A stretch of DNA of 1,908 bases from Naegleria gruberi. Taxonomy: Eukaryota. The position numbers and the translations under genes are program-made. How positions within the stretch are numbered: the stretch's first letter is position 1; the number at the start of each line of letters is the position of its first letter. Under the pieces are notes generated by a model. The model ran no database searches. It was given only the letters and a program-made list of their open reading frames with translations, and had not been told where the DNA came from. This document shows positions 6 through 1,736 of this stretch, one piece after another. The stretch lies in NCBI GenBank assembly GCA_000004985.1, contig GG739306.1; one strand, 5' to 3'.

Positions 6-212
6 TCATAGCCTCTTCTTGTTCCTCCTTCTTTTTCGTTCTTCCTCCTCTCTTCTCTTTTTCTTTTCATCTATTATATCAGGAATAGTATTTCGTGGAG
101 AGTGGATCAATTCATGCATTTGTTCATAATATTTAGAATCCTTATCGAAATCTTTGATATCTTCAATATCCTTCACTTCAAAATCATCTATTCTCGTTGA
201 AACCATTATCAA
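6..212 (-). CDS. Open frame with a K/R/E-rich basic C-terminus (..DEKKKRREEEERKRRRNKKRL), ending at TGA 6-8. Probably exon 2 (6..187) of the upstream gene rather than a separate gene.
   Basis: The ORF track starts this ORF at a TTG translated as M (bacterial start rule); the first real ATG is codon 3. The frame is open from 230 down to 6. An acceptor AATAG at minus-strand 192..188 joins it in phase to the 290..616 ORF through a 113-nt intron (188..300). It lies only 77 bp from the upstream ORF on the same strand. Confidence 0.4.
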   Translation of the reverse strand: MIMVSTRIDDFEVKDIEDIKDFDKDSKYYEQMHELIHSPRNTIPDIIDEKKKRREEEERKRRRNKKRL

Positions 213-289
213 ACAATTGTTTGAAACAATTCAATATGATTAAATTCCAATATAAGTGTAAACTCATCTCCATCAAGAGAAAACAATAT

Positions 290-616
290 TCAAAACCTAC
301 ACCCAGTTTCAGGATATCTCTGTTTTAAAGGAACCAAATATTCATCAGCCAAGTCTTCTGATTTTAATCCAACCCCATTGGAAAATTTCGATGTAATTCC
401 TCTCTTCCGAGGTTTACTGAATGGTATCTCTGCTCCACCAGTTTCAATTCTCATACTTTTTAATAAATTAATGGCATTCTTCTTTTCCTCACTGACCATC
501 TTCTTCTTCAGCCGATCCAAATTTCTCAAATGAACATTCACCTGATTTGTTGTTTGCTCGATACTTCTACTGATGGACTTGTATTGAGCATTACATTCTT
601 GGTGTTGTTGCATCAT
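290..616 (-). CDS. Hypothetical small charged protein, 108-codon ORF starting ATGATG at 616. Probably exon 1 (301..616) of a two-exon gene.
   Basis: Uninterrupted 108-codon frame on the minus strand that starts with ATG ATG. Coding GC is noticeably higher than the flanking ~80% AT DNA, and codons such as AAG, GAG and CTG are used. The frame ends at TGA (290-292). A GTAGGT donor sits at minus-strand 300..295, just upstream of that stop. I could not recognise a family; the product is coiled-coil-like and charged. Confidence 0.5.
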   Translation of the reverse strand: MMQQHQECNAQYKSISRSIEQTTNQVNVHLRNLDRLKKKMVSEEKKNAINLLKSMRIETGGAEIPFSKPRKRGITSKFSNGVGLKSEDLADEYLVPLKQRYPETGCRF

Positions 617-732
617 TTTTTTAAATTAAATTTCATGACTGTAGATGAAAACAACTAAAAATGGCGGGAGATTACTAACAGGGTTACCTTAAATAAAATA
701 AACAGCCTGAATAATGATTCAAGAAGCGTCGA

Positions 733-743
733 TGGTTTAGTGG
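733..743 (+). promoter_or_regulatory. Pol III A-box of the tRNA-Gly gene (TGGTTTAGTGG).
   Basis: Matches the A-box consensus TRGYNNARNGG at tRNA positions 8-19. Confidence 0.7.
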
Positions 744-774
744 TAGAATACGGCGTTGCCATCGCCGTGACCCG

Positions 775-785
775 GGTTCAATTCA
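775..785 (+). promoter_or_regulatory. Pol III B-box (GGTTCAATTC) with its final conserved C replaced by the first base of the insertion.
   Basis: The B-box consensus is GGTTCGANTCC. Here GGTTCAATTC is followed by A785 instead of C62, so the insertion junction lies inside the B-box. Confidence 0.6.
777..784 (+). repeat. Target-site duplication, left copy (TTCAATTC, tRNA positions 54-61).
   Basis: Identical 8-mer at 1516-1523. The bases just outside differ (G776 vs T1515, A785 vs C1524), so the duplication is exactly 8 bp. Confidence 0.7.
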
Positions 786-951
786 TTTTGATAGTATGAA
801 TTATTGTGATTGTGTTGTTTCTCAATTTAATTTGGGAATTTCATTTCCCGTTCTCCAATGTTGTGAGCATTTTGCTTTTATTATTGTTAATTCTTTTTAT
901 TTAAATTTCTGTGCGTCGACCAATTATAAACATACTGTACATGTATTAAAA

Positions 952-964
952 TCCGTTACCCGAT
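952..964 (+). repeat. 13-bp perfect direct repeat TCCGTTACCCGAT, copy 1 (copy 2 at 997-1009).
   Basis: Read directly: aaaTCCGTTACCCGATgg versus attTCCGTTACCCGATag, 45 bp apart. Confidence 0.9.
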
Positions 965-996
965 GGTTAATATTTAATGTTATGGATGTATTAATT

Positions 997-1009
997 TCCG
1001 TTACCCGAT
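997..1009 (+). repeat. 13-bp perfect direct repeat TCCGTTACCCGAT, copy 2.
   Basis: Read directly. Confidence 0.9.
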
Positions 1010-1224
1010 AGTAAATTGTTTGAAAATGTAATTCATCATGTAATGTGTTAATTCAAAGTTTGTGAACATCATTAATGAATAAATTTTATTGTGATGACTC
1101 CTAATTAGGAAATTCCGTTTCCCTATACCCAATTATCAATATCTTTAATATTACATTATCAAAATTAATGTGTGAAATACATTTAAATAATAATTTAAAA
1201 AACATTGTATTAATTCAATTTCAG

Positions 1225-1238
1225 AATTGAATTCAATT
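1225..1238. repeat. Perfect 14-bp palindrome AATTGAATTCAATT centred on an EcoRI site.
   Basis: The sequence is its own reverse complement. AATTCAATT also occurs just upstream at 1212-1220. Confidence 0.85.
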
Positions 1239-1273
1239 GCCACATTAGGTAATTCCAAAACCCGTTACCTAAC

Positions 1274-1319
1274 TTCCAACTTTTATTTCCAACTTTCCAA
1301 TATTTCCAATATTTCCAAC
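1274..1319 (+). repeat. Degenerate microsatellite-like array of five TTCCAA units with period ~8-14 bp.
   Basis: TTCCAA at 1274, 1288, 1296, 1305 and 1314, in the run ATTTCCAAC / CTTTCCAAT / ATTTCCAAT / ATTTCCAAC. Confidence 0.8.
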
Positions 1320-1327
1320 ATTCAATA

Positions 1328-1365
1328 AAAGAACAACATTCAATGAAAAATTAAAGAACAACATT
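1328..1365 (+). repeat. Two copies of a 13-bp direct repeat AAAGAACAACATT (1328-1340 and 1353-1365).
   Basis: Read directly. Confidence 0.85.
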
Positions 1366-1373
1366 TGTTAATT

Positions 1374-1401
1374 ATTCAACATGATGTTTCACATCATGAA
1401 T
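1374..1401. repeat. 28-bp perfect direct repeat ATTCAACATGATGTTTCACATCATGAAT, copy 1. Each copy is an internal hairpin.
   Basis: Identical 28-mer at 1419-1446. Inside each copy, CATGATG (1380-1386) is the reverse complement of CATCATG (1392-1398) around a 5-nt loop TTTCA. The flanking ATTCA/TGAAT extend the stem with a 1-nt bulge. Confidence 0.9.
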
Positions 1402-1418
1402 TAAAAATAATGAACAGA

Positions 1419-1446
1419 ATTCAACATGATGTTTCACATCATGAAT
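1419..1446. repeat. 28-bp perfect direct repeat, copy 2 (hairpin).
   Basis: Read directly; it lies 45 bp after copy 1. Confidence 0.9.
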
Positions 1447-1515
1447 AATATTAAAATAAATAATTCATAATTTCATCATAAAATTAAAAGTTAAATGAAT
1501 TCCAAAAAAGGAAAT

Positions 1516-1523
1516 TTCAATTC
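1516..1523 (+). repeat. Target-site duplication, right copy (TTCAATTC).
   Basis: See the left copy; it is continuous with the tRNA 3' portion. Confidence 0.7.
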
Positions 1524-1535
1524 CCGGTCGACGCA
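1516..1535 (+). tRNA. tRNA-Gly(GCC), 3' portion: duplicated T-loop segment, T-stem 3' half CCCGG, acceptor 3' strand TCGACGC and discriminator A.
   Basis: CCCGG (1523-1527) is exactly complementary to CCGGG at 772-776. TCGACGC (1528-1534) is exactly complementary to GCGTCGA at 726-732. Joining 726..784 to 1524..1535 reconstitutes a canonical 72-nt tRNA. Confidence 0.8.
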
Positions 1536-1547
1536 GTCAGAAGTGAA

Positions 1548-1552
1548 TTTTT
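1548..1552 (+). terminator. Pol III terminator (TTTTT) 13 nt downstream of the tRNA 3' end.
   Basis: T5 run on the coding strand right after the discriminator base. A backup T6 lies at 1682-1687. Confidence 0.6.
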
Positions 1553-1731
1553 AGATAGCTGTTTGCACTCTGCTCTTACTATTTTAGAAATCAGTTTCAT
1601 GCATGTATTTACGTAAATTGGCAAATTTTTAGGTATTGAATATGTATAATTATTGAAAAAATAATCTCGGCTTGACCCTCATTTTTTACTGAAATAGTCC
1701 ACCTCCTTCAATACATTTCATACTAAACTGC

Positions 1732-1736
1732 AAAAA
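1732..1736 (-). terminator. Pol III terminator T5 for the 5S gene (plus-strand AAAAA).
   Basis: A run of five T on the minus strand immediately after the 5S 3' end GTAGTC. The first one or two U may belong to the mature RNA. Confidence 0.6.

Follow-up and report, generated by a model that had tools for sequence, protein, structure and literature searches.

An interrupted tRNA-Gly(GCC) gene

The window, i.e., the whole stretch of DNA analysed here, is a complete orphan contig of 1908 bp in the assembly of Naegleria gruberi (contig GG739306.1, GCA_000004985.1). It carries a tRNA-Gly(GCC) gene that is split in its T-loop. The two pieces of the gene are separated by an insert of 731 bp, roughly central in the contig, and both junctions carry the same octamer, TTCAATTC (Table 1). 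The bases adjoining the two copies of the octamer are different (g and t before, a and c after); the repeat is thus exactly 8 bp long and the insert exactly 731 bp long. An earlier reading made on the letters of the window only (hereafter the sequence-only reading) had described this split gene, the insert and the 8-bp duplication; all three are borne out by the sequence and by the fold obtained with ARAGORN.

Table 1. Coordinates of the pieces of the tRNA gene, of the insert and of the repeats within it.
Feature	Position	Strand	Description
tRNA-Gly(GCC), 5' piece	726..784	+	standard positions 1-61; sequence GCGTCGATGGTTTAGTGGTAGAATACGGCGTTGCCATCGCCGTGACCCGGGTTCAATTC
A box inside the 5' piece	733-743	+	TGGTTTAGTGG
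B box of the 5' piece	775-785	+	10/11 bases kept (GGTTCAATTCa)
Octamer TTCAATTC, left copy	777-784	+	tRNA positions 54-61, i.e., entire T-loop and first base of the 3' T-stem
Insert, presumed non-autonomous mobile element	785..1515	+	731 bp, 24.4% GC, non-coding, no terminal inverted repeat, oriented internal repeats
T4 run	786..789	+	2 nt inside; the tRNA strand of the insert has six runs of T>=4, of which this is the first
Local duplication	941..1016	+	45-nt period, 31-nt copies, 87% identical, each with TCCGTTACCCGAT
Microsatellite (TATTTCCAA) x 4.4	1284..1322	+	9-nt unit
Two perfect 28-nt copies of ATTCAACATGATGTTTCACATCATGAAT	1374..1446	+	spacing 45 nt; 8-bp hairpin from each
Octamer TTCAATTC, right copy	1516-1523	+
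tRNA 3' piece CCGGTCGACGCA	1524..1535	+	positions 62-73: T-stem CCGG, acceptor TCGACGC, discriminator A
T5 terminator of RNA polymerase III (pol III), original tRNA gene	1548-1552	+	13 nt past the 3' end of the gene

When 726-784 and 1524-1535 are joined, the resulting 71 nt fold into a flawless tRNA-Gly(GCC) cloverleaf (ARAGORN). The window as it stands yields only a poor pseudo-tRNA at 725/726-796, which makes use of insert bases (ARAGORN, Rfam) and reaches 21.2 bits in Rfam vs. a gathering score of 29. The comparison of the interrupted and the reconstituted sequence, suggested by the sequence-only reading, thus opposes a pseudo-tRNA below threshold to a perfect tRNA.

The same gene is found uninterrupted elsewhere. 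When a metagenome collection was scanned with nucleotides 34-61 of the tRNA, a single contig was matched, Ga0247722_10058881 (L001). Its tRNA-Gly(GCC), at 207-277, is identical to the reconstructed gene at 71 of 71 positions and scores 66.9 bits in Rfam. No substitution separates the window from this copy: 65 of 65 nt are identical at 720-784 (L001 201-265) and 20 of 20 at 1516-1535 (L001 258-277). As far as sequence can tell, the joined sequence is therefore a real, functional-looking gene, as L001 shows. Next to its tRNA-Gly this contig also carries a BTB-domain gene, the best named homologues of which are those of N. fowleri and N. lovaniensis with 43% identity; because they are only 43% identical, L001 comes from an organism related to Naegleria and not from strain NEG-M. 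It counts as an «empty site» solely in the sense of a paralogue or of another species. Of the empty-site paralogue envisaged in the sequence-only reading, an intact tRNA-Gly in a related organism was thus obtained, and none was retrieved from N. gruberi itself. The interrupted copy is now a pseudogene, the function of which is presumably covered by intact paralogues.

It must be noticed that L001 also contains a tRNA-Ile(AAT) at 47-119, on the same strand as its tRNA-Gly(GCC) and separated from it by 87 bp. Upstream of the tRNA-Gly, L001 (..TGATTAAGGCAAGAA) resembles the window (..TGATTCAAGAA), and the shared bases may be a conserved upstream element. A 27-mer of the tRNA has no match in the viral and prokaryotic genome collections, and there is no tRNA in the region of N. 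fowleri around the homologue of the L001 gene.

As had been claimed from the letters, the two pieces belong together as halves of a single gene: the joined cloverleaf is perfect, its identity to the intact gene is complete and a chance origin is negligible. The chance expectation in the window is 8e-6 for the 12-nt 3' piece and 5e-10 for the 20-nt piece that includes the repeat. Two fragments truncated independently and overlapping by exactly 8 bp need several coincidences. An artefact of this kind, i.e., a chimeric clone, a misassembly or two independent truncated tRNA-Gly fragments lying 739 bp apart, is very improbable. It is favoured by the nature of the contig, a leftover of 1.9 kb that has a 1-nt deletion near its left end with reference to another contig with the same flanking gene (L002), a frameshift absent from the proteins P0002 and P0004 (see the last section). 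However, random chimerism cannot set complementary halves in the same orientation, with an exact 8-bp overlap, around foreign DNA. Moreover, no tRNA remnants adjoin either fragment in the insert, and the insert is neither E. coli nor vector DNA. Blastn searches of 5,426 E. coli genomes and of 72,556 plasmids gave no match to it, and the idea of an E. coli insertion sequence or vector that jumped into the sequencing clone was rejected on the same grounds.

The insert was also compared with the tRNA gene and its flanks, on both strands of the insert. The best local score is 23, vs. 19.8 +/- 2.3 for shuffled sequences. Since the insert holds no tRNA similarity above the level of shuffles, the 3' piece does not derive from a second tRNA copy that has decayed; this origin, which the sequence-only reading had put forward as a possible refutation of its own claim, is ruled out. 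A single insertion event thus explains the whole arrangement, because the insert holds nothing else that is tRNA-like. Two candidates for decayed tRNA copies in the insert, GCGTCGAC (similar to the acceptor stem) and CCGTTACCCGAT (vaguely similar to the T-arm), were discarded, their alignments being at shuffle level. The first of them, at 912-919, is the same as the 5' side of the acceptor stem of the tRNA (GCGTCGA). If the opposite strand is read and CAGAA is included, there is a resemblance to the 3' end of the tRNA and its trailer, with a score within the range of shuffles.

Content and repeats of the insert

The sequence-only reading had described an element with no open reading frame (ORF). 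This holds, in that no ORF of the insert is longer than 71 amino acids (aa). The peptides derived from its six frames have no match among 5.8 billion proteins and none in Pfam; the insert is therefore neither a coding remnant of a transposase or a reverse transcriptase nor gene-dense mitochondrial DNA. Exact look-ups for the ORFs of the insert, of the junctions and of the empty site returned nothing. A 22-mer from the 5' end of the insert has no match in the metagenome collection, and a 25-mer taken from its hairpin has none in viral contigs.

At E<=1, Rfam finds in the insert no intron ribozyme and no other RNA family (tRNA, 5S, 7SL). A group I or group II intron was thus rejected, no conserved ribozyme core being found. 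There is no A box and no B box within 786-1513, and consequently the insert is not a tRNA-derived short interspersed element (SINE).

These results bear on the functional explanation, according to which the insert would be a giant non-canonical tRNA intron, or the gene a split tRNA gene the parts of which are joined as RNA. Archaea, Cyanidioschyzon and nucleomorphs do have introns at non-canonical positions (in the T-loop too) and tRNA genes that are split or permuted. Nevertheless, such an explanation can hardly be retained at this locus: (i) six runs of T>=4 are present on the sense strand, the first one only 2 nt past the junction, and would terminate pol III, so that the insert cannot be a transcribed intron; (ii) with 731 nt it would be about 5-10 times as long as the longest nuclear tRNA introns, to our knowledge; (iii) the duplication of 8 nt of exon is foreign to bulge-helix-bulge introns; (iv) the interruption lies within positions 54-61, vs. 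position 37/38 for eukaryotic nuclear tRNA introns; (v) an intron of group I or II, or of any other Rfam family, is absent, as said above; and (vi) the identical gene is uninterrupted on L001.

The insert is poorer in GC (24.4%) than the flanking non-coding DNA (27-30%). Several of its motifs are oriented. CCGTT is found five times (848, 953, 998, 1115 and 1262), always on the + strand, and none of 2000 dinucleotide shuffles reaches five; TTCCAA is found seven times, again always on the + strand. The + strand is rich in A over the last ~400 nt of the insert, with an AT skew of +0.14 to +0.21. A 45-nt periodicity is absent across the whole insert, which contains two local duplications only. Given the oriented repeats, the insert is not random filler; it is consistent with non-autonomous elements, although AT-rich intergenic DNA can look similar.

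The ends of the insert are poor in symmetry. The sole perfect match between them is ATTT/AAAT; the terminal 18 nt match at 11 of 18 positions, a value equalled by 1.5% of shuffles. Between the two halves of the insert, inverted similarity does not exceed that of shuffles, and neither the terminal nor the subterminal inverted repeats are above chance. At the 3' junction, where the insert reads ...CCAAAAAAGGAAAT, there is no homopolymer. The fold of the whole insert as DNA has a z-score of -2.9 (on 20 shuffles only), and its pairings are not individually significant.

Other details of the insert are given as such. A perfect palindrome of 14 bp, AATTGAATTCAATT, lies at 1225-1238; it holds the heptamer TTCAATT on both strands as well as GAATTGAA, the reverse complement of the octamer. 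The hairpin CATGATGTTTCACATCATG is present at 1379-1397 and at 1424-1442, i.e., 70-140 nt inside the element and not at an end. It opens with the same heptamer as the terminal repeat of the Drosophila P element (CATGATG...), which is probably a coincidence. Outside the insert, a search for the motif pair TCCGTTACCCGAT..TCCGTTACCCGAT matched two places only, L005 1-480 and L004 6660-6840. The former is a phage contig of 100 kb, where the pair is part of a tandem repeat of ~58 nt, and the latter a repetitive coding region in a metagenome-assembled genome of Lachnospiraceae; both were considered as relatives of the insert and set aside as unrelated.

Proposed mode of integration and comparison with known elements

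The insertion of mobile DNA inside a pol III gene, and not beside it, had been proposed from the letters and remains the best explanation of the locus, the 8-bp repeat being what a staggered-cut integration leaves. More precisely, we consider, with a probability of about 0.7, that a non-autonomous mobile element of 731 bp integrated once into one copy of tRNA-Gly(GCC), a multicopy gene of N. gruberi. The integration machinery would have cut the two strands 8 bp apart, i.e., between positions 53 and 54 on the top strand and between 61 and 62 on the bottom strand, and gap repair would then have duplicated the T-loop octamer. Because the A box is preserved in the 5' piece, together with 10 of the 11 bases of the B box, this piece may recruit pol III, and transcription may still start. 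Pol III would stop at the T4 run, leaving an RNA of ~64 nt ending in ...GGGUUCAAUUCAUUUU, which would be unable to form either the acceptor stem or the T-stem. The 3' remnant of 20 nt and the T5 terminator would remain stranded 731 bp off.

Several observations weigh against this integration of a mobile element. The insert has no terminal inverted repeats (TIRs), as judged from its ends and from its two halves. Neither junction has a tail of poly(A) or of a simple repeat, and the insert contains no remnant of a transposase, a reverse transcriptase or an endonuclease and no pol III promoter head. Hence it fits no superfamily cleanly. In addition, no second copy of the insert was found in the collections searched, among which the N. 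gruberi genome is not included. The literature search returned neither an insertion in a Naegleria tRNA gene nor a Naegleria element of the Dada group.

If a mobile element is accepted, a derivative of the cut-and-paste DDE transposons, with degenerate ends and from a family with target-site duplications (TSDs) of ~8 bp, has somewhat less than an even chance; a retroposon inserted by target-primed reverse transcription is a tentative second candidate, and other mechanisms make up the rest. A TSD of 8 bp fits the DDE transposons of the hAT, P, Merlin and Mutator-like (MULE) types, and the absence of TIRs argues against all of these families. In the same manner, the insert resembles a miniature inverted-repeat transposable element by its small size, its non-coding sequence and its TSD, and lacks the TIRs.

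The hint at hAT and P families contained in the sequence-only reading is based on the length of the TSD only and is not supported, no TIRs being found above chance. The insert is like non-autonomous elements of these types in its 8-bp TSD, in its small, non-coding and AT-rich body and in its repeated short subterminal motifs. The motif CCGTT(T/A) is the complement of the (A/T)AACGG-type motif bound by the Ac transposase. However, the CCGTT motifs of the insert all run in one direction and are not mirrored at both ends. While hAT and P families possess terminal inverted repeats, the insert has neither TIRs nor termini of the type (C/T)A(G/A)NG. With respect to the TSD preference of hAT elements, nTnnnnAn, the octamer fits at position 2 only.

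The absence of TIRs fits a retroposon, i.e., a SINE-like element or the 5'-truncated 3' untranslated region of a non-LTR (long terminal repeat) element. Target-primed reverse transcription leaves TSDs of variable length and no TIRs. The strand asymmetry of the motifs (five CCGTT of five and seven TTCCAA of seven on the + strand) and the A-rich last ~400 nt point in the same direction, and so do the two identical hairpins at 70-140 nt from the 3' end. Hairpins close to the 3' end are reminiscent of the 3' stem-loops recognised by the reverse transcriptases of stringent-type long interspersed elements. Non-LTR retrotransposons and SINEs, among them the site-specific R2, Utopia, Mutsu (in 5S genes) and Dewa, share with the insert the lack of TIRs, the TSD and a strand-asymmetric body, and the site-specific ones are included in the precedent for integration inside multicopy RNA genes. 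In contrast with them, the insert has no A-tail or microsatellite at its 3' junction, no remnant of a reverse transcriptase or an endonuclease in the six-frame searches, and no pol III head, whether of the A/B-box or of the 5S type. Moreover, the T4-T5 runs would stop pol III on a SINE of the + strand. A retroposon origin is therefore considered rather unlikely.

A third explanation leaves transposable elements aside. The insert would then be ectopic DNA, genomic or extrachromosomal, captured while a staggered double-strand break in the tRNA gene was repaired, or the product of a crossover by a tyrosine recombinase (Crypton-like) on an identity of 8 bp. That the insert has no hallmark of any superfamily of transposable elements speaks for it. 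Active tRNA genes are fragile and pause replication, and the T-loop, between the inverted arms of the T-stem, is a common crossover site of prokaryotic integrases. The likeness to the prokaryotic integrative elements and phages of the T-loop, and to Cryptons, can be carried further: a direct repeat that is the crossover core in the T-loop, T-stem arms on either side and no TIRs. On the other hand, a clean 8-bp duplication with neither deletion nor filler is rare in end joining, and the lack of any protein-coding similarity goes against a gene-dense mitochondrial source. As for a crossover, no recombinase is present. The prokaryotic elements bring the 3' end of the tRNA with them, by which the gene is made whole again, whereas the gene in the window, that of a eukaryotic host, stays broken. 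The internal repeats, finally, are more typical of a non-autonomous element than of captured DNA or a crossover. This explanation is thus held to be improbable, and the integration of a non-autonomous mobile element is preferred.

Concerning the site of integration, a more ambitious proposal is that the insert belongs to a TIR-less family for which the T-loop/B box of tRNA genes is the specific site of integration, with TSDs of 8 bp. Such a family would be an analogue of Dada at a different site. The Dada elements (Kojima & Jurka 2013, PMC3706591; PMC8869645) insert inside multicopy small-RNA genes, including tRNA-Gly; they have no TIRs, and their TSDs are 6-7 bp long. They are 4.7-11 kb long and encode a DDE transposase with zinc fingers, and no Naegleria Dada is listed (PMC3706591; PMC8869645). 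Those of their tRNA-targeting lineages for which a site is given, i.e., five fish lineages and four Perkinsus families (tIA, tIB, tY, tG), use nt 8-13, in the A box (PMC3706591; PMC8869645). Dada-U1 and Dada-tIA show apparent flanking repeats of 8 bp, which were reinterpreted by the authors as 6 bp, and Dada-U6 and Dada-U1 have subterminal inverted repeats that copy a target sequence (PMC3706591; PMC8869645).

Like Dada, the insert lies inside a tRNA gene, has no TIRs and has a short TSD. It differs in that: (i) it lies at nt 54-61, in the T-loop/B box, and not at nt 8-13; and (ii) no subterminal inverted repeats copy its target, unlike those of Dada-U6 and Dada-U1. Its flanking repeat is exactly 8 bp, vs. 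the 6-7 bp stated for Dada and the apparent 8 bp of Dada-U1 and Dada-tIA. Among known systems, Dada comes closest as a precedent for an element that integrates within tRNA genes. As the site and the subterminal repeats were both examined and are not those of Dada, the insert is not filed there, and the likeness to Dada seen in the sequence-only reading is not supported.

The comparison with Ty1/Ty3, with TRE5/TRE3 of Dictyostelium and with DGLT-A is of another kind. The insert shares with them a tie to a pol III gene in the compact genome of a protist. These elements integrate upstream or downstream of the gene, via TFIIIB or TFIIIC, and leave it intact; in the present case the B box itself is split.

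The proposal of a T-loop-specific family draws on the position of the duplication: the T-loop, where tRNA genes are most conserved, lies entirely within the duplicated octamer, the centre of which falls close to the dyad of the T-arm. It draws also on the absence of TIRs, as in Dada, and on a resemblance between the right junction and the inside of the insert. The junction 1501-1525 (TCCAAAAAAGGAAAT, then TTCAATTC, then CC) matches the 25-mer 1099-1123 of the insert (TCCTAATTAGGAAATTCCGTTTCCC) at 19 of 25 positions, a borderline match that is expected ~0.02-0.05 times according to our own binomial estimate. Weaker relatives of this 25-mer are present at 825-849 and at 1239-1263; the pattern, GGRAATTYC-N4-CCC, is an imperfect palindrome.

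Nevertheless, the octamer is one of the five octamers tied for the highest AT content (6 of 8) in a gene of 59% GC. Since five octamers are equally AT-rich, a preference for AT or the open chromatin of an active pol III gene is enough to account for the site. Heptamers similar to the T-loop are not enriched in the insert (three observed vs. 1.3 expected, and 15% of shuffles reach three), and no subterminal repeat mimics the target as it does in Dada. A mimicry of the target through an enrichment in TTCAA/TTCAATT, with the palindrome at 1225-1238 included, was also tried and rejected, 9%, 31% and 15% of shuffles doing as well. The case is a single instance: the collections searched contain no other interrupted tRNA and no other copy, and the sole other Naegleria-like tRNA-Gly retrieved, that of L001, is intact. 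No result shows a targeting of tRNA genes by the element; the family with a fixed site in tRNA genes that had been imagined from the letters is thus unsupported, and its existence is judged doubtful.

The contig, its other genes and the age of the insertion

A full-length gene for 5S rRNA lies at 1736-1854 on the minus strand (Rfam 105.4 bits, E 1.3e-23). It is convergent with the tRNA-Gly gene, ~200 bp from the 3' end of the latter, and has its own T-run terminator at ~1731-1735 (-). A weak match to the snoRNA TtnuCD32 at 1811-1901 (21 bits vs. a gathering score of 100) lies partly over the 5S gene and is apparently spurious.

On the other side of the tRNA gene, the ORF 290..616 (-) is NAEGRDRAFT_76972 (P0001), 100% identical to EFC35373.1 / XP_002668117.1. 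A protein of 287 aa, NAEGRDRAFT_70788 (P0002), is encoded on a scaffold of 358,576 bp of the same assembly. The two proteins are in one cluster at 90% identity and are identical over the ~105 residues of exon 1 that they share; beyond exon 1, P0002 continues into the sequence encoded by 187..6 (-) of the window. For these two reasons the window is a redundant second copy of the locus on the 358-kb scaffold. The contig is probably the other haplotype of that locus.

The 108-aa model of NAEGRDRAFT_76972 is truncated: on the minus strand, exon 1 (616..301) is read into a GT..AG intron (300..188, 113 nt), which was placed by reading the sequence together with the protein P0002. Exon 2, at 187..<1 (-), continues the gene, and the whole is the 287-aa NAEGRDRAFT_70788.

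Two contigs of the environmental assembly ERR1078381 (L002 and L003) carry the same flanking gene with 99% DNA identity and end at position 308 of the window, short of the tRNA. At ~36 the window has a 1-nt deletion with reference to L002 (GAACG-AAAAAG vs. GAACGTAAAAAG), which puts exon 2 out of frame; no such shift is seen in P0002 and P0004. Located 36 nt from the end of the contig, this deletion may be a sequencing error at the end of a read. The remaining differences between the window and L002 are two single substitutions, at 214 and 95 of the window. For the flanking gene, the best orthologue is P0010 (49% identity, GCA_041937235.1, locus L008); neither a tRNA gene nor a 5S gene is located in the 10 kb to its left or in the 10 kb to its right. 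Synteny being lost, this locus is uninformative on the interruption.

The tRNA pieces and the octamers are unmutated and the contig is an orphan duplicate; the insertion is therefore probably recent, and it may be confined to one haplotype. The identity of P0001 and P0002 is what an insertion specific to one haplotype would leave. Strain NEG-M is presumably heterozygous.

If a family specific to the T-loop did exist, which has a slim chance, it would be a second, independent solution to the targeting of small-RNA genes from inside, besides that of Dada in the A box. A non-autonomous member of the family would then have inserted recently in the window, and its insertion might still be heterozygous. 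The same element found at the T-loop of other tRNA genes would define a new family aimed at the near-universal B box. As it stands, the locus is a clean tRNA pseudogene made by one insertion, in a protist with poorly catalogued mobile elements. The unmutated halves of the gene and the orphan contig on which they lie hint at a recent activity of the element in NEG-M.

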